In this document: piece after piece, positions 2,480-22,072 of the stretch | Position numbering within the stretch: the first letter of the stretch is position 1 | Layout: each line of letters opens with the position of its first letter | Source: Candidatus Hermodarchaeota archaeon | GTDB taxonomy: Archaea > Asgardarchaeota > Hermodarchaeia > Hermodarchaeales > Hermodarchaeaceae | Assembly: GCA_016839805.1 (NCBI GenBank) | Contig: JAEOTO010000043.1 | Span: 1-22,274 of the forward strand | Length of the DNA: 22,274 nucleotides | Reading direction: 5' to 3' | The notes under the pieces: model-generated | The model's input: only the letters and a program-made list of their open reading frames with translations | Told to the model about the DNA's origin: nothing | Databases searched by the model: none | Position numbers and translations under genes: made by a program

Positions 2480-3430
2480 TTATTTTTTCCCTTTTTTCTT
2501 TTTCTTAGGTTTCTTTTTGGGTTCATCGATATCAGCTGTTTCAGTGGTAATTCGAAAGATATCGATAAGTTCGCTGACATCAGCTTCAGCTACGGAATCA
2601 CGCAGACCGTGAGATCCTTCATTGCTTTTCTTGAGAAATTCAGTTGCTAGTACACGACCATCTTCGACAAGAATTCGAGGTGTATAATCACCACCAAAGA
2701 AAGGACCATCAGGAAGAGTGCGAGTACGCTCTAATTGAGAGGTAGTTTGAGTTTTCCCCAGAAAAGATACTGTTCGATCAACACTAGTGAATACTTCCTG
2801 TCCAATAATAACTAGTTCTCGATTATAACCAGGGGGTGGTGAAGTGTTCGCTACTCGACCAATGATATCATCTTGTGCTGGTGCAGGGACTGAACTGATA
2901 CTAACTGCCCGTTGTGGCCATTGATGTTCTGCACCATGGTATTCAGTACCTAGCTGGTTTGATTCAACAGGCATAGCCACTGGTGAAGGCTTTGGTGTAG
3001 GTTTGGGTGCTTTCACTTTTGTTTTAACAGGCTTCGGTTTTGGTGCCGGCTCATCTGGCGTTATTTCTATTGTTTTATCAGGAAGATCGACCTGCACGGC
3101 AACCTCAGGTTTCGGAGCCGCGGGCGTTGGCTTTTCACCTAGTAACGTGAGAAAGGCGTCAGGTTCTTCTCCACCATCAATTGACATAACTTTGTAAACA
3201 AGTCCCCGTTGACTGCGGACGGCCTGTCCTTGTCGGGCGGCAATGAACTTCTTGCGGACGCCTGCATCGGCTCCCTTCCAGAGCCAGATTTTCCGATCGT
3301 CATCATCTACTATAATAAGAACTCGTTCTGGAACTAGTTCCGTTTTGAGCTTTTTTGGCGTAGGTAGCTCCATGAGTTCCCCGGTTTCAACGACGTCATA
3401 CACTTGGAGGCGAACGGACAGTACCCTCAC
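2480..3430 (-). CDS. One-domain gelsolin-like protein with Pro/Lys-rich linker, uncharacterised C-terminal domain and polybasic tail
   Basis: The N-terminal ~100 aa 'L.PERVLIIVD...KIWLWKGADA...KKFIAAR......VMSIDGGEEPDAFL.LL' fits the gelsolin-repeat consensus (L.s.dvfilD...iyvW.G.....Ek..A......v.qG.Ep..F). It is followed by a PAPKPKP-type linker, a beta-rich domain (PPPGYNRELVIIG...LPDG.F...YTPRILVEDGRVLATEFLK) and the tail KKKPKKKKKGKK. Confidence 0.8.
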   Translation of the reverse strand: MRVLSVRLQVYDVVETGELMELPTPKKLKTELVPERVLIIVDDDDRKIWLWKGADAGVRKKFIAARQGQAVRSQRGLVYKVMSIDGGEEPDAFLTLLGEKPTPAAPKPEVAVQVDLPDKTIEITPDEPAPKPKPVKTKVKAPKPTPKPSPVAMPVESNQLGTEYHGAEHQWPQRAVSISSVPAPAQDDIIGRVANTSPPPGYNRELVIIGQEVFTSVDRTVSFLGKTQTTSQLERTRTLPDGPFFGGDYTPRILVEDGRVLATEFLKKSNEGSHGLRDSVAEADVSELIDIFRITTETADIDEPKKKPKKKKKGKK

Positions 3431-3662: not shown

Positions 3663-5693
3663 GTGTTTCATACAAAATTTCGCGACGTAATCATTGAAGA
3701 GTTATCAGGGACAATCGCGAAGGATTATATCTCAGAACTTACCCGATTCCACCGTATACAGGCATCACCTGGATTCCATGACGCCATATACTACGTTAAA
3801 CAAATCTTAGACCTATTTCCAGGGATCAATACCGAAATTGAAGTGTTTCCCGCTGATGGCAAAACCCGGACCTGGCAATGGACTGCACCGTTGGGGTGGC
3901 GAGTAGCGGACGGTGAACTTTACCTTGTGAGTCCAAAACAAGAGCTTCTTGCTAGATTTGCTGAGACGCCTGTAAGTGTCGTCGCACATAGCCAAACGAC
4001 AGACGTTGTAGCACCTTTAGTCTATCTTGAGGATGGAACCCGTGAAAAAGACTATAGGCGTATCGACGTAAAGGGTAAAATCGTTTTAACACCCAGTCGC
4101 GCTCAGTTGGTGCATAGAGAGGCAGTGATAAAAAGAGGAGCACTGGGAGCAATTCATTTTCCACCTCTCGAACGAAGGAGCAAACAACCAAATCTCGTTC
4201 CTTACTTGGGCATCTGGCCCAATGCTGTTGAAAAAGACCAAGCTGGATTTGCCTTCGCTGTTTCCGGACAAGTCGGAACACGCCTTCGTCACTTAATCGA
4301 ATCCGAGCCTGAAGTTCTGGTCCACGCTAAAGTTGACGCTGAACTTTTTTCAGGAGAGCAACGAGTCCTAACAGCGACAATTGAAGGACGAGAATTTCCA
4401 ACAGAAGAAATTGTGCTCATTGCTCATCTCTGTCATCCTCGACCTAGCGCTAATGACAATGCCAGTGGTAGTGGGTTATTGATGGAGATAGCTCGGACGA
4501 TTACAGCGCTCATCAAAGCAGGCAAATTACCCGAGCCCCTTCGAACGATTCGATTTCTCTGGGTTCCTGAATGGTATGGAACCATTTCGTATTTCCATGC
4601 GCACCCTGAATTCGCAACGCGGACGATAAGTGCGATTAACTGCGATATGGTTGGAGAGAACCCCCTCCTCTGCGGAGGTGTCTTGTCACTTCATCGAACT
4701 CCGGATTCACTCCCTAGCTATATCAACGATCTGCTCGAATACCACTTATCAGCTGCAGCAAAAGAACCACGTTTAATTGCACCAGATGGCGGAAATCAAC
4801 CCTTCCATTTTGAGGTCAAAGGCTTTGACTGGCGAAGTGATAATCTTATGTTTGTCGACTCCACTTTTAGTGTTCCCTGCCCTATGCTAAACCATTTTCC
4901 AGATGCCTTCTATCATAGCAGCCTTGATTCCATAGAGAAGTGTGATACCACGCGCTTACAACGGGTAGGATACGGAGTCCTTATGACAACTTTAGTGCAA
5001 GCTTATGCTGAGTCCGATGATGCCATGTTTCTGGCTACCCAAGTTCATGCTCATGCACATACTCGAATTACTCAAACAACTCAGCGCTACATCCATGATG
5101 CCATCGAATCCATTGCCCAATCAGATCGAGGAGCGATGCTCGCTCGTATCCTAAGAAAAGCCATGGAAAGTATTCGCCATATCACCCGCCGCGAAAGTAT
5201 GGCTCTCCAAAGCGTCAAAGTTCTTAGTCCCCATGATCAGGAACTGTATGACTTTATTGATAACATGGTTGACGATCTAGCCCAAGAACGCCAAGAAGAA
5301 ATTCGGAAACTACGAAACGTAGAAGACCTGCTGTCACGATCCATTGGCTATTCTCCATTAAAACGCCTGGTCCTACGCAAAAAGGAACGCGAAGCGAAAC
5401 GACTCATACCTCGTCGGAAGTTCCAGGGACCCCTAGATTATCCTAATCTCAACCGACAAACAAGGCCTAATGATACCGAATGGTTACGCACACAACAAGA
5501 AAAAGAACCTAATTTCGTAAATGTACTCTTTGAACTTATCAACTTCATGGATGGCCACCGAACCCTCTACGAAATAACATCAGCCCTAGAAGCTGAATTT
5601 GGGGACATCGCTAGCATTTACACAATCGACCGATTTACAAAGATCTTAACCGAATTAGATCTCATTGAAACCCAGAAAGTTAAGTCTTCGTAA
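3663..5693 (+). CDS. M28-family metallopeptidase with PA insert (DUF4910-type) and C-terminal winged-helix-like segment
   Basis: Motifs AHLCH, SANDNASG, RFLWVPE..GT, INCDMVG, SD and YHSSLD. PA-domain signature 'DY..IDVKGKIVL...GALGAI'. C-terminal 'NFMDGHRTLYEI'. No signal peptide seen. GGGAGG lies upstream. Confidence 0.85.
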   Translation: MFHTKFRDVIIEELSGTIAKDYISELTRFHRIQASPGFHDAIYYVKQILDLFPGINTEIEVFPADGKTRTWQWTAPLGWRVADGELYLVSPKQELLARFAETPVSVVAHSQTTDVVAPLVYLEDGTREKDYRRIDVKGKIVLTPSRAQLVHREAVIKRGALGAIHFPPLERRSKQPNLVPYLGIWPNAVEKDQAGFAFAVSGQVGTRLRHLIESEPEVLVHAKVDAELFSGEQRVLTATIEGREFPTEEIVLIAHLCHPRPSANDNASGSGLLMEIARTITALIKAGKLPEPLRTIRFLWVPEWYGTISYFHAHPEFATRTISAINCDMVGENPLLCGGVLSLHRTPDSLPSYINDLLEYHLSAAAKEPRLIAPDGGNQPFHFEVKGFDWRSDNLMFVDSTFSVPCPMLNHFPDAFYHSSLDSIEKCDTTRLQRVGYGVLMTTLVQAYAESDDAMFLATQVHAHAHTRITQTTQRYIHDAIESIAQSDRGAMLARILRKAMESIRHITRRESMALQSVKVLSPHDQELYDFIDNMVDDLAQERQEEIRKLRNVEDLLSRSIGYSPLKRLVLRKKEREAKRLIPRRKFQGPLDYPNLNRQTRPNDTEWLRTQQEKEPNFVNVLFELINFMDGHRTLYEITSALEAEFGDIASIYTIDRFTKILTELDLIETQKVKSS

Positions 5694-6523: not shown

Positions 6524-7966
6524 TCACCTCCGTTCTTTCCAAACATATTGGTAAGAACCGTAGATGAGGAGAGTAAGGAATAGTAAGAGAAGAACTACAT
6601 GGGTGTGGTATCGATGAACCGAGAAGATGACAATGCTAGCAAGAGCGACAAGGGCAAACCACCAAGTTGTTAGATTATTTACAATCGTTCCCCCCAGTGT
6701 ACGAAATTGGAATACCCACTTATGAACCAATGATAACGACGCCATTGGCAGACCACGTTCTATGGGACATGCAGGGGCTGAAAGAATTTGGGATGAGATA
6801 AGAGGTCCATGTAAGACTGCTCCAAATAGGATTAGAAAGGGTAGTAGAGCGATGAGATAGAACTTGTAAATACCACGGGGAAGGAAGATATGAGCAGCTA
6901 ATGAAAGAAGGACTGCTAGCAGAACGAGTTGTTCCTGGTATTGTCGAGTAGATTGATTCGGTATCCAATGGCTTAGAATCCAAAACAGGGCTAGAAAAAT
7001 CATCCAAGGAATTGCATAATGCACAGCATTAAAGATGAGAAATTTGAAAGGTTCAAACCAATAGAATGCAAGTACGGATACCGGAATGGGGTGGGTTGGA
7101 GCAGGTAGAAGATCATAAAACCAGTACGGTCCTAGCCCACTAGCAACTGCCTGAAGGTAATCAATTGGGAAAAGAACTAGATAAGGCATGGAAAAAGACA
7201 CAGCCACAACAATCATGATTGCTAACGAGATCACTAGTTGTTTCATACCCTCGCGATATTCCAGAAAGAGAATAACAGGTATTAACAAGGCAGCGGTTTG
7301 TTTGACCATTGCTGCGATGGTCATCCATAGAATAGCCCAGCGTAATTCATTTCGGATCATGAAGTAAAAACCGAGAACCAAAAAGAAAGTATGAATTGGT
7401 GTACTCAGCCATAGATAATTCCCCCACCATAAGGATATTGGATTTAAGGCATACAGAAGCATTACCACAACAGGAATAGCCCGATTCCGTGTAAGGATCC
7501 GTGCTGCAACATACATCATCGCACAGGTTGCAATATCGAACAATACAAAGGCAAAGCCGACTCGAAGAAATGTCAGGTCTTGACCAAGCGATAAGGCTGT
7601 AAATCTTATATCAGGAAAGAGAAGCTCTGAGGGGACATAATAGAACGCAGCAAGAATGTACACAAACAGGGGCGTATAGATATAGGTTTGCACTCCATCG
7701 ACGGTGAAGAGGGTCTCAGTGTAGGGGAGGTTCCCCTGAACAAATGCTTCTACGAAGTTCAAGTAGTAATAATCAAAGTCTGCAAAGGCTTCTACGACTT
7801 CGAAATGCATTCCGAAGGTAGGATGATATCCTAGATGAAGGAAGTGGATTGATGTAAAATGAAAGATTGCGAGTTTGAGAAGTACTATGGGAATAAAAGG
7901 AACCCAAAATAATGGATCAGCCAGGCTCCGTAGCTTGGTGATTGACCAGGGTTCGTCAGCCGACAT
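6524..7966 (-). CDS. GT-C fold polytopic glycosyltransferase (GT87 / PIG-M-like mannosyltransferase)
   Basis: Many hydrophobic helices. The first loop carries DxD (ADFDY), G.LPY and TYIYTPL, followed later by 'FD', 'LYALNP' and 'AAMVKQ.A.LLIP', the conserved order in GT87/GT50 enzymes. Confidence 0.75.
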   Translation of the reverse strand: MSADEPWSITKLRSLADPLFWVPFIPIVLLKLAIFHFTSIHFLHLGYHPTFGMHFEVVEAFADFDYYYLNFVEAFVQGNLPYTETLFTVDGVQTYIYTPLFVYILAAFYYVPSELLFPDIRFTALSLGQDLTFLRVGFAFVLFDIATCAMMYVAARILTRNRAIPVVVMLLYALNPISLWWGNYLWLSTPIHTFFLVLGFYFMIRNELRWAILWMTIAAMVKQTAALLIPVILFLEYREGMKQLVISLAIMIVVAVSFSMPYLVLFPIDYLQAVASGLGPYWFYDLLPAPTHPIPVSVLAFYWFEPFKFLIFNAVHYAIPWMIFLALFWILSHWIPNQSTRQYQEQLVLLAVLLSLAAHIFLPRGIYKFYLIALLPFLILFGAVLHGPLISSQILSAPACPIERGLPMASLSLVHKWVFQFRTLGGTIVNNLTTWWFALVALASIVIFSVHRYHTHVVLLLLFLTLLIYGSYQYVWKERR

Positions 7967-8068
7967 ATGACTTCTTTATACGTACAGTTCTTCGAGGATT
8001 AAAGGCTTATAGAACGCCAAATCAGTTACTTTTTGAATGTTAAAGGAACTTTATTCCATCCGTCAGGC

Positions 8069-8076
8069 TTAATAAG
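8069..8076 (+). promoter_or_regulatory. TATA box for the longin-domain gene (near-leaderless)
   Basis: TTAATAAG ends about 29 nt before ATG 8105, which fits an archaeal TATA box with a very short leader. No RBS is visible. Confidence 0.45.
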
Positions 8077-8104
8077 TTTCATCACACTACATTATGTCGC
8101 ACCA

Positions 8105-10195
8105 ATGATTAGGGATGTTTACGTACTCAAACGGACTGGTGAAGTTCTGGTTCACAAGCCTTTTAGTAAACGCGGCGTTGATGATGCCATCTTTAGTGGA
8201 TTCTACAGCGCTCTCAGTGCTTTTGCTGAAGAACTTGGTCATGGTGGAATTGAAACCATTCAAATGGGCGATGTTAGTTTTTACTATGAACACAGCGAAG
8301 ACCTCCTCTTCGCCATTGCGGCAGATAAATCCCACAACGCAAAAGATGTCAAGATCGTGTTAACTGAGGTTAAACAGCAATTCACGGAAAAATACGCCGA
8401 CCGTGTTGCCGATTGGGATGGCAATCCCCTCCCCTTCCAAAAATTCACGAAAGACATCGAACTCATCGTCTCCGCCAAACCCAGTACCCAAGGCGAAGCA
8501 ACACTATTCACACTCCCCTTTGCCCTGGATGGCACACGATTAAAAGGCAAGTTCTTAACCGATCCAGAAATTAATGGCGACTATATTCTCGACTCCCGAC
8601 TCGAACTAGCCGCTGTTCATCTCCTCCTAGATGATATTCGACGAACCGAAAATAACCTCAAACCCTTGAAAGAAGGATGTTACGAATTTATTGCCAAACT
8701 CCTCTGGCCCATTTGGGTAGTAAAAAGTCCTGATGACCGGCTGTTACTCATTGATGGACTCAAACTCTTACAACCACAAGTTGCTAGAGGGTTTGTTCCT
8801 CCAGCTAGCCGTTATGAAGCACTACTCAACGTGAACGCATCCCCCGAATATCTAGCGGTGATGAACAAGCTCACCGAAGAAGTCCGAACAGCCGCCCAGT
8901 CCACACCATTTGACATCCATGTCATTCCAGCCAAGTTAGCTCAACAAATCCAACAGTTAGCTCGCATCACGAATGGTCAAGCACAGTTCGGTGTGCAACT
9001 TCCCAGTCGAATAAACCACAATCAAGCCAAGAAAGAAGCTGAGAATTTCTTCGCTGAAGCCATCAACACATACACAGAAGCAAGTAACCAATGGACAGAA
9101 TTTCGCACTTACTTTCAAAAGGATACCCAGAAATGGGAAGAACGCATTAACACCGAAATCATCACGCTTGAAGAACATTACAAAACCCGAAAGGTAACCA
9201 TAAAAAAAGAGATTGATATGGTCCTTACTGAGCTAGCTAAAGAAGAAGAGAAGGAATTAGTAGAAGTCGATAAATGGCGACAGAACCAAGAAACAACAAT
9301 ACTTGCCCCACTACAGACTAGTCTCGAACCACTCACCCAACAAATTTCCCAACAACAAACAGCACTGGAACAATTCCTCGAGAAAAACTCAGGCAGCAAG
9401 AGAGGAGCCAAGACCTTCATCAGTCAACTTACCCAAACCTTAGACCAATTCAACACCTTCACCACCTACGTTCGAAACCAATCCAAAGAAACCCGAAAAC
9501 AAATCCAACAAACTCAGCGAGAACTTAGCGACCTAGACAAGCAAGTGCAAGAGAAGAAACACCAAGTTCACCAACGTTTCGCAGTCCAAGAAAGGGAAGA
9601 AATCAAACGCCTTGATGCCTTACAAGAAGAACGGGAGATCCAACTCCAAGAAACCCAACACCGACTCAATAAACTCAAAGACCACGCTAATGAAATCGAT
9701 GACCTTATCAACGAACACATCATCCACAGCCAAAAACAACTCGAAACGTTTGAAAAATACCTCATTGAAAACGGAGCGTTGCTTCCCGCAGACTCCAAGA
9801 CTCCCATATACATTCCAATCTATTTCGCGGGGCTCAAACGAGAAGACGACAGTACCAAATTAATCATCATCCCACCACTTATTGTTCCACCCTCAAAACA
9901 TGAAACAGCTACAGCTCTTGGACAACGTTCCACCCCAATAGCATCCCTTTCAGCTGAGATGATACAATACTTAAAACAGCCCCTTGAAGCCGCATTAGCC
10001 AAGGATGAAAAATTCGCCAAACAAATCACACGATTCTCCCCACGACATAATCTACTACAAGACCCCCATATCGAAAGCCTCCTCTACTCAGGGCTGCATG
10101 CCATGTGGCAATCCAAGCTAATCCCCGAACGCCAACACACTCAAATCAAACTAGCCTGCATCGATATCTACCGCAGCACCAACGATAATTCCTAG
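8105..10195 (+). CDS. Longin-like domain protein with split alpha/beta domain and long coiled coil
   Basis: The N-terminus 'MIRDVYVLKRTGEVLVHK.F...VDDAIFSGFYSALSAFAEEL...IETIQMG...LLFAIAAD...VLTEVKQQFTEKY...WDGN..F..F' is a typical Asgard longin-like domain. A Q/E/K-rich heptad region at ~9060-9770 is bracketed by 'KLLWPIWVV' and 'IYIPIYFA'. ATG 8105 is preferred over TTG 8033. Confidence 0.8.
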   Translation: MIRDVYVLKRTGEVLVHKPFSKRGVDDAIFSGFYSALSAFAEELGHGGIETIQMGDVSFYYEHSEDLLFAIAADKSHNAKDVKIVLTEVKQQFTEKYADRVADWDGNPLPFQKFTKDIELIVSAKPSTQGEATLFTLPFALDGTRLKGKFLTDPEINGDYILDSRLELAAVHLLLDDIRRTENNLKPLKEGCYEFIAKLLWPIWVVKSPDDRLLLIDGLKLLQPQVARGFVPPASRYEALLNVNASPEYLAVMNKLTEEVRTAAQSTPFDIHVIPAKLAQQIQQLARITNGQAQFGVQLPSRINHNQAKKEAENFFAEAINTYTEASNQWTEFRTYFQKDTQKWEERINTEIITLEEHYKTRKVTIKKEIDMVLTELAKEEEKELVEVDKWRQNQETTILAPLQTSLEPLTQQISQQQTALEQFLEKNSGSKRGAKTFISQLTQTLDQFNTFTTYVRNQSKETRKQIQQTQRELSDLDKQVQEKKHQVHQRFAVQEREEIKRLDALQEEREIQLQETQHRLNKLKDHANEIDDLINEHIIHSQKQLETFEKYLIENGALLPADSKTPIYIPIYFAGLKREDDSTKLIIIPPLIVPPSKHETATALGQRSTPIASLSAEMIQYLKQPLEAALAKDEKFAKQITRFSPRHNLLQDPHIESLLYSGLHAMWQSKLIPERQHTQIKLACIDIYRSTNDNS

Positions 10196-10572: not shown

Positions 10573-11259
10573 TTACGTAAATTCTTCCTTTTTCTTCGTT
10601 CCTTCACGTCCAGCGACTCGTCGTGCGGCCAGATGACGAAGCAAACTCACCGTCGTCCGCAACTTTGATGTTTCTTTCAAAATCAGCGTTTCAGCTGCGT
10701 CTTTATTCGTAACCATGTTAGCTCGAAGCAACACCTTCCGCATCCACGCCAACTGATCATCATCAAACGCCGGATTCGTAATCGCCTTTGAACTCAAATT
10801 CACCGTCATATGCTCCTTTGTCGACTCAGGTAACGTTTCATATTCTTCCTTGGTGACCATATAGATCAGCGCACCGACATCAATGCTATCCGGTAACACT
10901 CTTTCCATGAACCGTCGAATCCCCACGGTCACCGCTAGCGACCCAATCAACACAATAGTTTGTTCGCTGATACCCGCCGTCAACAGTGCCGCAGCCACCT
11001 CAACACCAAGATTCCGAATCACTGTTTGTACCGTAAACTCCACAGGTCGTATCTTCTCCTCCTCATCCGGGGCGTCAAAATCATGATAGCCTAATACTAG
11101 ACCCGAGCGAGAAAATTCCACCTTGAAGCCGTGTTCACAGACTTTCCCTGGAACAACTCGTCCCATAATGATGTTGCCTTGCACACTACTCCACGCGTCA
11201 TCGGGCACCTCCAGTTCTCCCGGGGTACTACATTTGGGACACGTGATTTTCAGCTTCAA
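10573..11259 (-). CDS. Asgard-type CxxC...CxH zinc-finger protein with C-terminal alpha/beta domain (possibly DENN-core-like)
   Basis: TTG start with GGAG RBS. The N-terminal domain reads 'ITCPKC...EVP...VCEHGF.V.F...G.V.GY..FD', and the C-terminal part has alternating helices and strands. Confidence 0.7.
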   Translation of the reverse strand: MKLKITCPKCSTPGELEVPDDAWSSVQGNIIMGRVVPGKVCEHGFKVEFSRSGLVLGYHDFDAPDEEEKIRPVEFTVQTVIRNLGVEVAAALLTAGISEQTIVLIGSLAVTVGIRRFMERVLPDSIDVGALIYMVTKEEYETLPESTKEHMTVNLSSKAITNPAFDDDQLAWMRKVLLRANMVTNKDAAETLILKETSKLRTTVSLLRHLAARRVAGREGTKKKEEFT

Positions 11260-11420
11260 CGTTCGACTCCTCGCTGGAGCAAGCCAACTAGTCTCAAGGA
11301 GACTTCTCCCTAAAATATCCTTCCATCAACACATCAGAAGGCAGGATTTCACTTCTTGTCACTGATAACTTGTTTATACGCATTTATGATAACGCAATTT
11401 TAATTGAATAACCTTCAAAT

Positions 11421-11471
11421 CAGATAAAGGTATTTAAAGCGTCTTACCACGGTCATAATAGCGGTTTGGCG
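11421..11471 (+). promoter_or_regulatory. BRE-TATA promoter plus conserved transcript-start element of the giant surface-protein gene (copy 1)
   Basis: CAGATAAAGG-TATTTAAA-GCGTC, then ATAAT and CGGTTTGGCG (11462-11471). A near-identical copy lies at 22150-22200. Confidence 0.75.
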
Positions 11472-11590
11472 AAGGATATCAGCGGAGCAAGTTTCCATTT
11501 ACAATGCAAAATCAATTACCATGCCATACGAATGGAAAGGAGATCTTCTTTCGTTACACTGCGAAATCTACAGCATTAGAGTGGAGTTGT

Positions 11591-14500
11591 ATGAATCGTC
11601 GGACTCTTGTCTGTTTGAGCTTTTTAGCCGTATTCCTTTTTTCCTTTATTTTTACTTTGGATTCAGTCACGGCTGTGAATCCGATTGAATTGGATCAAAC
11701 ACCCTTATCTGGTTCAGATTTGAGCCCGGTATCAGCTGCACTGTCCTCATTACCTCCACCCCCTGCCGGGCCAACCTATTCTGATGGTCAATACCAATAC
11801 GAAGGACTAGGAACTTCTCTCACCACAACGGAATACGCAAAGGGCTCTAATCTTTCGCTTCAAGTCTCTGACTTTGACTATGGTGAAAATAGATATGGGC
11901 AAGTTCGGCTACCTCGAGGTTGGACGGGTTATCGTCTAGAAGCTGATGTATACAATCTTTATGACCAACCCTATTTCATTCAGGGTAATCGGGAAAATGG
12001 GAATTTTAACACTATAGGCGCCGCTTGGACGGCCCAGAATAATGGCATGGGCGATAATACTTCTAATCCATATTATGGTACTAACTGGGGACCTACCTAC
12101 GGGTATTCGGGGAATGGCGTTCAAACGTGGGTAGAATGGTGGAGTGGATGGACCTGGGATGTCAACTCCTATGTAGTTTGGATAAATCCCATTAACATCC
12201 TACGGGACGACCCAGTTTATGCTAAACTCACATTTAGAGTTAATGTGAACCTTCTGGCAGGTAGCAGCGGTGGCCGAGGCCGAATGGTCATCTATGCAGA
12301 AATCGCTGGTATTGTCTACCGGTTGCTATTGGATGAACATTGCCCGAATAATAACCAATGGTACCAATTGAGCATCTCAGTACCCTATGATGATTTAGAA
12401 ACCTGGACAGTGCCAGGAACCATCAATGTTCGGTTAGGCCTATCATTTACAGGCACACAAAGCGCGTGGGATTATGAGTACTGGGGACTTCAATTTGATG
12501 ATGTAACACTAGAAGTTCGAGGACTGGTCAATCCCAATGATACCACCTGGCTTGATTTAGTAATGAACTCCACAATCGCAGACACTGCTGGATACGGATA
12601 TGGATCTTATTCGCGAATAGGAGCTTGGGCAAATCCCACCGAAGTCCATAAACGAGTTGTAGCCCATTGGCAAGCCACTAATACTGACGCACGTATGGTT
12701 GGGTTCAATTACAACCTAACATTATTCATCACCAGAGACGCAACGACCGAACAACAGGTTGGAACAGACGGTTCCAAATTTATGGTAAGAAATAATTCAG
12801 CGGTGTATTGGACCACCTGGGTGTATGCTTATCAACCGTATTTCTTTGCGGAATACAACCTTTCCATCACTCGTCCCACCAGCGAAACTTGGATCATCCA
12901 TAAAGTCACTGATGCCCTCTTCACAGATCGAACCAGCGCTGTTACCACAACTTCAACGCACTTCGTGCTTCCAAGTTCAGCAATAAACGACGTTTATGGG
13001 TGGTGGAACTTCACTTTTACTTCCACAAATCGCATAACATCAATTTCAACAGTTCAACCAATCTATTACATTAACCCTCGAACTCCCAATTCCATTACAC
13101 TAACAACTAATTTTGGTACTAATGTTGGTGAGGCTAACTTAACCCTCTATAACCCCGATGGCGATGTTATCAATGAAGAAATGAAGGTTCTCGCTGGCAG
13201 CTCTGTTGACTTCGCGACAATCAACTTCAATAATGGCTCAAAATATGTTGCGGGTCTATATTCTCTCTGTGTAAGTTATGATAACGGTACAACTCCTACA
13301 CAAACAGCTGCAGGGTTTCTTTCTCATGAATTCATAATCCAGCATTCATCAGATTTAACACAAGAATCCACAAATCTCTGGGTGAGTTATGGACCAGGTT
13401 CTTTCTATCCACGTGTTGTTTATAATGATACGGACAGGCTACTACCACCCTTTAATGTAGAGGAGGCTACAGTAACAGGTACAATTTCTGGGAATCCTGT
13501 AACATTCTATGAAGCTGGTGGCAGGTATGAAGCACAAATTGCCAATGACTTGTTAATTCCTGGTAATTACACTTTGAACGTGAACGCCAACAAAGTATAC
13601 TATGATAGTGATAGTTGCATAATCAACGTTTATGTCCGAAGTGACACAACAATAAGCTCTCCTGAATCCCCTGGACTAACCGTTCCATATGACGAAACTT
13701 TTGTAGTACAGGTCAATTATATCGATGGTTCCAGTGCAGGAATAACAGGTGCGAGCATATCTACACCAGGTTGGGTAAGTACAAGTGTTTTAGAGCTAGG
13801 AACCGCTGGTTGGTATAATCTTACCGTTGATACAACCGATAAGACATCTCCTGGTACTTATCAACTAACAATTAAGGCGTCAATGGAATATTATCAGAAT
13901 CAGTCGCTAGTTCTAACAATTGTTATTCGAGAAATTTCTACTTCAATCACCTATGACCCTCCAGGATCAGTACCTTGGGATGAAGACGTTGTTATTTCCT
14001 TTGATTTCGCTGTTAATGACCCAGAAAGCCAACATCATGGTAACGGACTCAGTAGTGCTTCTGTAAGCGCTCAACTCGATGGAAGCACGATATTTCCAGG
14101 GTCAGATTACATTTTAACAGATCTTGGGAGTGGACAATACACACTAACCATACTTGTATCAAGTGGAGAAATCAGCACCATAAAATCGTACACCCTCGTA
14201 ATTCAAGTGACTCCAGCAGATTCAAAATATAGCGATGCGAGTCGAACCATTACTTTCACTATCCGACCACTTGAAACAACCATTATTTATGATCCACCTT
14301 TACCAAAACCATGGGGTGAAGATTTAGTCATCATATTCAACTACTATGTCGATGACTCTGATAGTTCTCATAATGGTGAAGGTATCACAGGAGTGACTGA
14401 TATCACAGGTACAACACTTGATGGAGGTGCACTCCTCGGAGGTCAATACACACTTGTAGAGAACGGTGGAGGTCAATATACTCTTACTATCCTATATTCG

Positions 14501-17500
14501 AGTGGAAGAATTAGTAGTATCAAATCTTACACACTTCAGCTCTATGTTAACTCACCTGCTTCCGAATATTCCGATAGTAGTCGTCAAATCACTTTCAGTG
14601 TTCGCCCATTAATCATGCAAATCACGTTCGACCCAATTTCCACCACTCCATGGGGTGATAATGTTGTAATTGTATTTTATTATCGTGTTAGTGATACGGC
14701 TAGCAGTCAACATGGGAATGGTTTAGCAGGTGTCACGAGTATCGCTGGTTCCACGTTAGATGCAGTTGCCCTCAATCCAGTCGACTATTTGCTCATTGAT
14801 AACGGCGGTGGACAATACACATTGACTATACTCTATTCTAGTGGTAAACTTGACCTTATCAAAACCTACGATCTTGACCTTTATGTGAATTCACCTGATA
14901 CACAACATGAGGATGCATCTCAAAGTACTACATTTACGATAAGAACCCTTGCCACACAAATCACATATGATCCAGTGATTCCCGTACCCTGGAGCGAAGA
15001 TGTGGTCATCACTTTCTATTATACGGTAAACGATCCAGCTAGTTCTCAAGATGGAAACGATATCACTGGGGTCACTGCAATTACAGGCTCTACGCTTGAT
15101 GCAGTTGCACTCAATCCAGGCGACTATTCCCTAGTGGAAGTGGGAGGTGGTGAATACACACTTACAATCCTCTATTCCAGTGGTAGAATCAACAGCATCA
15201 AAGCTTATTCTCTCTTCTTATATGTCGTTTCTCCTGATGCCCAGCATAATGATGCATCTATCACATTTTCCTTTTCGGTTCGACAAATCCAGACCTTCAT
15301 TACATACGACGCAGTATCCCTCACACCCTGGGCAGAAGATATTGTCATCACCTTCTATTATGTCGTTAATGATCCCACTAGTTCACAGCATGGAAATGGA
15401 ATTCCTGGAGTTACAAGTATTGTCGGTTCGACGCTAGATGCTGTTGCATTAAATCTTGGCGAATACTCACTCGTGGATAATGGGGGTGGCCAATACACCC
15501 TCACCATTTTGTATAGTAGCGGCAAACTGGACAACATTCAATCTTATACTCTTCAACTCCATGTCGTTTCACCAGATACACAGCATGAGGACGCTACTCA
15601 GACAATCAACTTCACTGTTCGCACGCTTCTTACTTCGATCTCATTTGACCCTATTTCGCAAGTTCCCTATGGTGAAGACGTGATTATCACCTTTTATTTT
15701 GTGATTAATGATATCCAAAGCTCTCAAGATGGTTCGGGTTTGACGGGTGTAACATCCCTTACTGGTTCAACCTTAGATGGAACTGGCTTAGACCCAGCGG
15801 ATTATACACTGGTAGAAGTTGGGAGTGGCGAATACACCCTGACCCTCCTTTTCAGTAGCGGGAAGATCAATTCAATCAAAACATATACACTGGCTTTGCA
15901 CGTTGTATCACCAGCTGCTCAATATAATGCGGCTGATCGAACGACTACATTTATTGTCCGACAATTAGGCACCAAAATCTCCTATGATCCACCACTTCCC
16001 ACCCCTTGGGGGCAAGACGTCATCATCACAATTTATTATCTTGTTGAGGATACGGCTAGTGCCCAGCATGGAAATGGTATCACTGGTGTCACTAGCATCG
16101 CTGGTTCAACATTAGATGGAACAGCCCTTAATCCCAGTGAATATACCCTAGTGGAAGTTGGTAGCGGGGAATATACGCTAACCCTGCTTTATTCTAGCGG
16201 GAAACTAGAAAACATCAAAATTTACAACCTCCAACTCGTTCTTTTAGCACCTTCAGGTGAATATGCAAACGGAAACCAACAAGTCACGTTTACTATTCGG
16301 GCATTAACCACCCAGGTATTCTTCGATCAACCATCTCCAACCCCCTGGGGAGATGATGTGGTCATTATCTTCTATTATCGAGTAAGTGATTTGGCAAGCA
16401 CCCAACATGGAAATGGCATCACCGGCGTCACCAGCATCACAGGCTCCACCCTGGATGCTGTAGCATTAGATCCCGGTGATTACATGCTTGTCGACAATGG
16501 TGGCGGACAATACACCCTCACCATCCTTTACTCCAGTGGCAAACTTAATAACATCAAAACCTACACACTTTCCCTCTATGTGAATACCCCCCTCAGTCAA
16601 TATGATGATGCTTCCCGATCCTTAGATTTCGATGTCCGCATAATCGATACCCTCGTAACCTATACTCCCACTCCACCTGTACCCCGTGGAACCGATGTCA
16701 TAATCGTATTCTATTACACAGTTAACGATCCCTCAAGTTCTCAACATGGTAACGGTATCATAGGTGTCACCAGTATTGCAGGCTCCATGCTAGACGCTGT
16801 TGCTCTCAATCCAGCGGACTACACTCTAGTAGAAAATGGTGGTGGCCAATATACCCTTACCATCCTCTTCTCAAGCGGAAGGATCAGTTTAATAAAAACC
16901 TACTCATTATACCTCAACGTGCACTCGCCTGATGCACAACATGAAGATGCCTCCGAGAATGTTGGATTTGCGATTCGAACCATCCGAACAGCAATTAGCT
17001 ATGATGCTGTGGGAAGTGTTGCTTGGGGTTCAGATGTAGTCATCACCTTCTATTATATCGTCGATGACTCAGCTAGTGGAGAAGACGGAAATGGAATAGC
17101 AGGTGTCACCAGCATCGCTGGCTCAACCCTCGATGGACTTGGTCTCAACCCAGCTGACTACTTGCTTGTTGACGATGGTGGTGGCCAATACACCCTTACT
17201 ATCCTCTACTCCAGTGGTAAAATTGCCACAGTCAAAATATATTCATTGGCTTTACATGTGGTAGCACCAGTTAGTTATCATGAGAATGCCGACCAAACCA
17301 TCGGTTTTCGAATTCGTAACCACAATGTCGCCAGCAACATTGATCCCATTTCCACAATTCCTTGGCAGAACGATGGGACACTAATATTACGGGTTAACGA
17401 TGATGATGTAGGCACGCCTTTACCAGACATTGATATGATTGCCATCGAAATCATTGGACCAACAACTCTGTTTATTGATCACAACAACTGGAATACTTGG

Positions 17501-22072: not shown

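Follow-up and report, generated by a model that had tools for sequence, protein, structure and literature searches.

The surface of an Asgard archaeon has been described for a cultured Lokiarchaeum, in which cryo-electron tomography (cryo-ET) reveals no ordered S-layer but surface proteins that project from the cell, some of them bridging protrusions (PMC9834061). Large surface proteins built along comparable lines include the adhesion receptors of eukaryotes, the giant adhesins of bacteria and the S-layer glycoproteins of archaea. Here, we describe a giant gene carried by contig JAEOTO010000043.1 of Candidatus Hermodarchaeota archaeon (Asgardarchaeota; assembly GCA_016839805.1), whose genome of 2.31 Mb is 86.7% complete. 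The entire contig of 22,274 bp was analysed and is called the window below. The gene product probably belongs to a multigene family of giant type-I membrane proteins that is confined to Asgard archaea, and would act through a distal head, a long stalk and a cytoplasmic tail by the mechanism proposed below.

The longest frame spanning the giant gene runs from position 11504 to 22072 (+ strand; 3,522 aa). Translation is likely to start at 11591, since the N-termini of homologues begin alike (MNRRT, MNRKP and MKRRT); the open reading frame (ORF) 11591–22072 (+) then encodes a protein of 3,493 aa, beginning with MNRRT. All features of this gene given below are on the + strand.

Topology and conservation of the cytoplasmic tail

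The hydropathy profile of the giant protein contains just two hydrophobic segments, at aa 3–32 and aa ~3217–3243. The first belongs to a Sec-type signal peptide (aa 1–28, 11591–11674), composed of MNRR, a hydrophobic core and SVTA followed by V, and homologues start alike. The second is a single transmembrane (TM) helix (aa ~3217–3243, 21239–21319), modelled by AlphaFold2 as a helix at aa 3215–3245 with a predicted local distance difference test (pLDDT) score above 90. Approximately seven Lys/Arg residues are found among the 22 residues after this helix, and none in the dozen or so before it. Applied to these flanks, the positive-inside rule predicts a cytoplasmic location for the last 245 residues, and the giant protein is thus, by its predicted topology, a type-I membrane protein with a 245-aa cytoplasmic tail. 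E, K, R and P abound in the tail; in the ectodomain, it is T, S, N, Y and G that abound. The first-pass annotation, made from the sequence alone, had proposed a signal peptide, one TM helix and some 250 cytoplasmic residues, and our analysis agrees with it on each. Compared with Pfam, the whole giant protein gave nothing above threshold, only noise (CFSR, Y_Y_Y and Enkurin), and NCBIfam also returned nothing above threshold.

A search restricted to the tail recovered 20 giant proteins (2,124–4,498 aa) from Asgard metagenome-assembled genomes (MAGs), with tail identities of 55–73%. In the alignments, the TM helix plus tail is 55–76% identical, and among more distant homologues the identity over the last 400 residues of the ectodomain is 20–32%. 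The first 125 tail codons were compared with those of 13 loci. Nonsynonymous divergence (pN) is 0.09–0.16 (0.27 at the most divergent locus) and synonymous divergence (pS) is 0.64–0.79, that is, saturated; pN of the ectodomain is 0.27–0.55. As pN is low while synonymous sites are saturated, we conclude that the tail is under purifying selection and is not homogenized by gene conversion.

When 1.84 billion representatives were scanned exhaustively with HMMER, the tail was found in only 36 clusters, all from Asgard archaea. It is always C-terminal and follows a TM helix wherever upstream sequence is present; the named records are Hermodarchaeota, Ca. Hermodarchaeum yapensis, Promethearchaeota and Thor- or Odin-labelled MAGs. 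The tail-only profile A2 matches 48 of the 201 sampled Asgard genomes: all 18 genomes of the window's own family (one to nine copies each), 24 of 43 in a second family and a few in other families. A count of 153/201 obtained with alignment A1 was discarded, because it was inflated by ectodomain columns, the matches in distant families covering the pre-TM part only. Tail-bearing open frames in the relatives are 1,400–7,100 aa long, with a large ectodomain upstream of the TM helix; the more distant ones match Invasin_D3 above the Pfam cut-off, and Big_1 and Filamin below threshold. A search of the literature for this family of giant tail proteins found no description of it. As judged from sequence comparisons, the tail is an unannotated domain family restricted to Asgard archaea, and the distribution of homologues supports the Asgard origin that had been proposed for the giant protein.

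Structure of the tail

The tail was modelled with AlphaFold2 using 16 homologous tails (284 residues, window 21218–22069; model residue 1 is protein residue 3210). The cytoplasmic part starts with a basic juxtamembrane motif, SIPWxVRRMRKLAK, and two helices (aa 3246–3295, 21326–21475; modelled helices at aa 3249–3262 and 3271–3295). Residues P3, V6 and R7 of the motif SIPWxVR(R/K)MR are invariant in 17 of 17 diverse tails, that of the window included. There follows a predicted three-helix module (module 1, aa 3317–3370, 21539–21700; ELDKIPGLGxEEKxVLAxEMRKIPRKDRIWFLDDLRRQM), with pLDDT of 85–88 at model residues 108–161. A disordered Pro-rich linker (aa 3371–3441, 21701–21913; pLDDT about 40 at model residues 162–222), which carries the motifs LEEVxPxEPP and EDRTAPTVLPP, separates it from a second three-helix module (module 2, aa 3442–3492, 21914–22066; EIRRELDKIPGLxxEEKxALxDHLQYLSKEERQATYRSL), with pLDDT of 91–96 at model residues 233–283. 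The two modules represent an internal duplication (ELDKIPGLGxEEK and ELDKIPGLxxEEK). Module 1 is nearly invariant among 20 homologues, and the short motifs of the linker are at least 80% conserved in close homologues. The order of module 1 and module 2 at the C-terminus is that of the tail profile A2, which the window matches over positions 1–192 (E 2.9e-78). The family patterns are ..L..L.GLG..K..L...M..IP..DR.WF..DL..QM for module 1 and ..IP.L...EK..L...L..L..EER for module 2, and the window's tail conforms to both.

No relative of the tail was found in Pfam or NCBIfam, nor of profile A2 among PDB sequences; a Pfam match to Pol III tau arose from the Pro-rich linker and is noise. The best structural matches of the modules are of the protein A type (Z 5.8–6.2, root-mean-square deviation (rmsd) 1.9–2.9). 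In distant relatives, a third repeat gives a sub-threshold match to the BET extra-terminal domain (17.8–22.1 bits; cut-off 24.5), likewise a three-helix module that binds peptides, a likeness that may serve as a lead. The first-pass annotation had asked for a survey of tail conservation among homologues, and held that a tail that was extracellular, or non-conserved and disordered, would undo its interpretation. The tail is found to be largely structured, the linker alone being disordered, strongly conserved, under purifying selection and predicted to be cytoplasmic; its interpretation thus stands on this point.

A segment resembling module 1 was also noted outside the giant proteins. Locus L050 (G073:C38:5048-6982) encodes a soluble protein of 645 aa composed of a module-1-like N-terminus (ERAWFFEDLRRQ), a conserved domain of ~440 aa and a TPR-like end. 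This fusion appears to be a one-off event, because the module is absent from the relatives that the protein has in 18 further genomes of the family, G000:C42:51144-52556 among them.

Head and stalk

The N-terminal region (aa 28–640) was modelled with AlphaFold2 using 15 homologues (mean pLDDT 68). The model is all-beta and can be divided into three domains. Head domain 1 (aa ~60–313, 11768–12529; pLDDT 70–90 over most of the domain) contains an invariant NGNF...W motif; this motif and several Trp residues of the head are invariant among homologues. Head domain 2 (aa ~322–477, 12554–13021) is all-beta, with pLDDT of 50–60 rising to 85–90. It is followed by an Ig/macroglobulin (MG)-like beta-sandwich (aa ~480–587, 13028–13351), recognized by VIA-align of the model.

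In the model, head domain 1 has the beta-jelly-roll fold of carbohydrate-binding modules (CBMs; about 150–190 residues). VIA-align superimposed it on CBM15 (1gny; Z 11.4, rmsd 3.0, 142 aligned residues, aa ~126–313), on more than 20 CBM entries, CBM4/16/22/36/61 being among the families (Z 8.7–10.7, model residues 99–286), and on the Eph ligand-binding domain (Z 9.2). The Ig/MG-like domain is closest to an MG domain of complement C5/C3 (Z 11.4, rmsd 1.9–2.3, 93–96 aligned residues), with further matches to alpha-2-macroglobulin, S-layer and PECAM Ig domains. These two domains, rather than head domain 2, dominate the fold searches. The best multi-domain Foldseek matches to the head region are CtXyl5A (a cellulosomal CBM/Fn3 enzyme), the Eph and RPTPmu ectodomains, a phage tail tip and glycosidases. 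At the sequence level, aa 1–610 gave no Pfam match at E <= 10 and so do not belong to a CBM sequence family. The combined AlphaFold and Foldseek check that had been suggested was thus carried out for both ends of the protein, giving a CBM-like head with an Ig/MG-like domain and generic three-helix modules in the tail; it bears out the distal binding head insofar as the modelled fold is concerned, and glycan binding would be its most likely function.

The stalk comprises about 24 tandem modules of ~113 aa (aa 609–3215, 13415–21235), as determined by phmmer and an iterated hidden Markov model (HMM) self-search. The self-built HMM identified 20 significant units of ~113 aa between aa 609 and 2997, and with module-sized gaps included, about 24 units precede the TM helix, close to the roughly 25 or more modules of ~110 aa estimated in the first-pass annotation. 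The ten best-conserved tandem copies (aa 786–1914, nt 13946–17332; alignment A4) share 42–50% of their protein sequence with one another. One stalk repeat gave nothing above threshold in Pfam. Aligned by hhalign with the modelled Ig/MG-like domain, the 113-aa repeat profile reached a probability of just 5%, and the repeat is therefore not tied to that modelled fold. The first-pass description of the ectodomain as a series of beta-sandwich-like modules thus holds for the three modelled N-terminal domains, to which the fold evidence is limited. The whole stalk may be Ig-like, as its module size and strand-like patterning suggest, and arithmetic on the module count would give the ectodomain a reach of ~100 nm.

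Paralogue arrays and exchange of heads

In the relatives, the tail-bearing giant genes are often organized in tandem arrays of three to four, with members of 1,420–2,325 aa each (L052–L063; for example G118:C34:98-117 kb, G043:C15, G011:C24, G052:C2, G060:C3 and G106:C156), and a new head frequently begins ~250 nt past a tail. The window's genome carries a single tail-bearing giant copy; further copies may be present in it and unassembled.

Some proteins that are otherwise nearly identical carry different heads. Between P0003 and P0020, the stalk is 82–96% identical and the last ~500 residues 63–88%, and the heads share 33–35%. Between the window protein and P0009, the head (73–87%) and tail (66–79%) are similar and the stalk is 7–50% identical. 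These patterns indicate that heads move as cassettes on differing stalks while the tail stays constant, as would be expected of a head that sets the binding specificity and a tail whose function inside the cell is shared.

Proposed mechanism and alternative explanations

We propose that the ectodomain would be exported by means of the Sec signal peptide and the protein anchored by its single C-terminal helix. The stalk of about 25 beta modules would keep the CBM-like head distant from the membrane, and the head would most likely bind a glycan, which could belong to a partner cell, to the cell's own coat or to particles. The 245-aa tail could be a docking platform for a conserved cytoplasmic partner common to all paralogues. 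Ligand binding, partner docking and any outside-in coupling are putative, and the giant protein might mediate cell–cell or partner adhesion and pass contact on to the cell interior. The first-pass annotation had presented the protein as a candidate Asgard adhesion receptor that could project about 100 nm; its picture of an Asgard giant type-I surface protein is retained here, with a CBM-like head, a repeat stalk and a structured tail under selection, and adhesion, reach and signalling are what we infer from that architecture.

Several observations weigh against this mechanism. The confidence of the head model is only moderate (mean pLDDT as given above), and the head fold matches include the S-layer structures 8c8o, 8qox and 7ptp, Ig-like domains also being building blocks of archaeal S-layers. 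The stalk repeat profile A4 has no significant relative among PDB sequences, and Foldseek and VIA-align compare the tail modules only with generic small helical or long-helix bundles (Z <= 6.2). The genes that border the paralogue arrays are metabolic ones (enoyl-CoA hydratase, nitroreductase, HMGL-like and CoA ligase), not signalling genes. The conserved neighbourhood of a longin-like gene (see below) is limited to one family and could be mere inherited gene order. None of the RNA runs searched for the giant gene carries it, the only run that contains it being one of marine-sediment DNA.

Some of these points lend themselves to another explanation, according to which the protein is a structural component of the envelope or glycocalyx that replaces an S-layer; its tail would merely anchor, sort or space it, for example on a sub-membrane scaffold, and no ligand-specific role would be involved. 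The dense surface proteins of Asgard cells that have no ordered S-layer (PMC9834061), the S-layer proteins of Ig-like domains among the fold matches, the many paralogues in relatives and the lack of signalling genes beside their arrays are all consistent with such a role. The surface of Lokiarchaeum, as seen by cryo-ET, fits a receptor or adhesin and an envelope component alike (PMC9834061). However, the exchange of heads as cassettes and the rapid divergence of stalks would be expected of proteins that vary in binding specificity more than of a uniform coat, the modelled head has a CBM-like binding fold, and a 245-aa tail under strong purifying selection exceeds the needs of an anchor. We therefore regard a purely structural role as possible but doubtful.

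A different proposal accepts the receptor and specifies its output. A ligand at the head would alter the clustering or conformation of the tails, whose three-helix modules would recruit longin-type GTPase regulators and thereby switch small GTPases or the cytoskeleton. A candidate for such a regulator is encoded next to the giant gene: a 720-aa protein (8033–10195, +) with a longin-like N-terminal domain (Pfam Longin, sub-threshold, E 9.4e-4) and a long coiled coil, which has no relative among PDB sequences. Between the two genes is a divergent gene of 228 aa (10573–11259, -) whose product has a CxxC N-terminus and no match in Pfam; its position is kept in L016 and L012. The longin/coiled-coil gene is upstream of the orthologous giant gene in same-genus genomes (G091:C28, G011:C37, G043:C28 and G114:C29) and also in a second genus (L016; 42% identity), so that both neighbours accompany the giant gene in two genera.

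Longin-like domains are also found fused to surface proteins. In another Asgard family, L047 (G200:C87), L048 (G134:C56) and L049 (G182:C123) encode surface proteins in which a TM helix, a longin-like domain, the same three-helix module as in the giant tail and a coiled coil follow each other within one tail. This fusion of the module to a cytoplasmic longin-like domain also favours a cytoplasmic location of the giant protein's tail. This type of tail has a match in 41/41 genomes of that family, most of which contain full-length relatives 43–64% identical to the query, and the fused domain of L048 aligns with the longin domain of the 720-aa neighbour (25% identity, E 1e-6). The window's own genome (G000) codes for four more type-I proteins with cytoplasmic tails of ~243 aa that consist of a longin/roadblock-like domain and a helical region: C12 (1,372 aa), C33 (968 aa), C14 (933 aa, truncated where the contig stops) and C9 (756 aa). 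All four share a basic juxtamembrane stretch, R-x-x-(I/L)-(I/L)-P, that resembles the SIPW motif. A literature search for longin domains fused to surface proteins found none, and membrane or surface fusions are not mentioned in the accessible published work on Asgard longins.

On the other side, longin/roadblock domains are abundant in Asgard genomes (at least five per genome), and their adjacency to the giant gene could result from chance or inheritance. The longin/coiled-coil protein has full-length relatives in families from which the tail is absent, and the paralogue arrays have metabolic genes in place of longin neighbours. For these reasons, coupling to longin-type regulators is a minority reading, which we consider unlikely. 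If the three-helix modules did dock such regulators, the giant family with its swappable glycan-binding heads would constitute a prokaryotic outside-in receptor system coupling contact to small-GTPase or cytoskeletal switches in archaea closely related to eukaryotes, a full scheme that we judge slightly less likely still.

The KIPGLG motifs might alternatively be helix-hairpin-helix (HhH) elements that bind DNA or RNA, with the tail tethering nucleic acid to the membrane. The pattern L..IPGLG does resemble the start of an HhH, and the N-terminal HhH region of RecR is among the weak Foldseek rows (E 3.1). However, no HhH family of Pfam is found at E <= 10 in the window's tail or among the 17 tails; module 2 reads GLE or GLS and does not have the second Gly of G-h-G; the modules are acidic; and the modelled three-helix bundles are nearest to binding modules of the protein A type. 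This explanation is very improbable.

A chimeric assembly, or a decaying pseudogene lengthened by collapsed repeats, is hardly credible as an explanation of the ORF: its source is a MAG, the contig ends 200 nt after the stop codon and the genome has one tail-bearing copy where relatives have 1–9, but there are no internal stops, many samples contain full-length homologues (2,100–4,500 aa) whose parts are arranged alike, and misassembly is made unlikely by the limited identity of the repeats (42–50% in protein) and by an 18,742-nt contig from a second assembler, which differs by one mismatch from window 11000–22109 over the same 11-kb stretch. The latter contig derives from the marine-sediment DNA run, which may itself be the source of the DNA studied here. 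Both the window contig and an independent Logan contig break 40–200 nt past the stop codon, where a G/T branch is present at position 22110 (within window 22073–22274).

The mechanism with a glycan-binding head and a docking tail remains our preferred explanation. The tail-bearing family provides a sequence-defined candidate for the protruding surface proteins of Asgard archaea seen by cryo-ET. As the tail is unannotated, strongly selected and common to all paralogues, it is a ready bait for what the Asgard surface is wired to, and the recurring link between tails of Asgard surface proteins and longin-like domains points to GTPase regulators as first candidates.

Other genes in the window

Upstream of the genes discussed above, the window codes for a 441-aa protein (1033–2358, -) whose five zinc ribbons (Zn_Ribbon_1, E 2.3e-25; DZR, E 1.2e-23) are interrupted by a helical region. 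A protein of 316 aa (2480–3430, -) contains an N-terminal segment reminiscent of a gelsolin repeat (..IWLWKGADAG..EEPDAFLTLLG), which is followed by a linker rich in Pro and Lys and, at the C-terminus, by a polybasic stretch (KKKPKKKKKGKK); the protein has no Pfam match at E <= 0.01. The 676-aa M28 peptidase/DUF4910 protein (3663–5693, +) appears ordinary. A 480-aa polytopic membrane protein without a Pfam match (6524–7966, -) is encoded close to the giant gene.

Comparison with known systems

Bacterial giant adhesins (SiiE, LapA/MpIBP-type RTX adhesins and invasin/intimin) resemble the giant protein in having thousands of residues, tens of tandem modules of ~100 aa and a ligand-binding tip, a function that is putative in the present case. 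Unlike it, they are exported by type 1 or type 5 secretion, remain fixed in the outer membrane or through a retention module, and have neither a C-terminal TM helix nor a cytoplasmic domain. The giant protein has no Pfam match to RTX or Big profiles, and carries a Sec-type signal and a TM helix instead of a type 1 secretion signal.

Archaeal S-layer glycoproteins share with the giant protein, itself a candidate surface glycoprotein, a C-terminal membrane anchor and, in Nitrosopumilus and Sulfolobus, Ig-like domains. In PGF-CTERM proteins, the TM helix is followed by a few basic residues, whereas the giant protein continues for 245 structured and conserved residues; it has no PGF motif before the TM helix and no match to the PGF-CTERM families of NCBIfam.

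Each tail module can be compared with the protein A B/Z domain, the X domain of paramyxovirus P and the BET extra-terminal domain, which are also three-helix bundles of ~50 aa. Any small helical bundle would be expected to score in this range, the modules are not members of these sequence families, and the window's tail has no BET match. The Asgard longin-tailed surface proteins are similar to the giant protein in their large ectodomain, single TM helix, basic R-x-x-I-P... juxtamembrane stretch and structured tail of ~240 aa. They differ from it in that the longin domain is part of the tail, whereas the giant protein has a longin-like neighbour encoded by a gene of its own upstream.

The comparison with cadherins and immunoglobulin-type adhesion molecules made in the first-pass annotation is useful as regards architecture and fails as regards families. 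Like the giant protein, eukaryotic adhesion receptors (cadherins, clustered protocadherins, Eph and RPTPmu) are type-I proteins with a distal binding domain, a stalk of tandem beta-sandwiches and one TM helix, and Foldseek places the Eph and RPTPmu ectodomains among the closest matches of the giant protein's head region. No match to cadherin (PF00028), Ig, FN3 or MAM families of Pfam was obtained with the whole protein at E <= 0.1 or with the head and one repeat at E <= 10, and searches of Pfam, NCBIfam and PDB sequences with the tail found no catenin- or adaptor-binding domain family. Nor did the giant protein match any kinase or phosphatase domain; its tail has instead the unannotated pair of three-helix modules. 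The likeness is architectural and does not reflect descent. It extends to the organization of the genes: protocadherins, like the giant family, combine a cytoplasmic domain conserved across paralogues with variable ectodomains encoded in tandem arrays. With its conserved and unannotated inner tail, the giant protein is a good candidate for a link between the surface and the interior of the Asgard cell.

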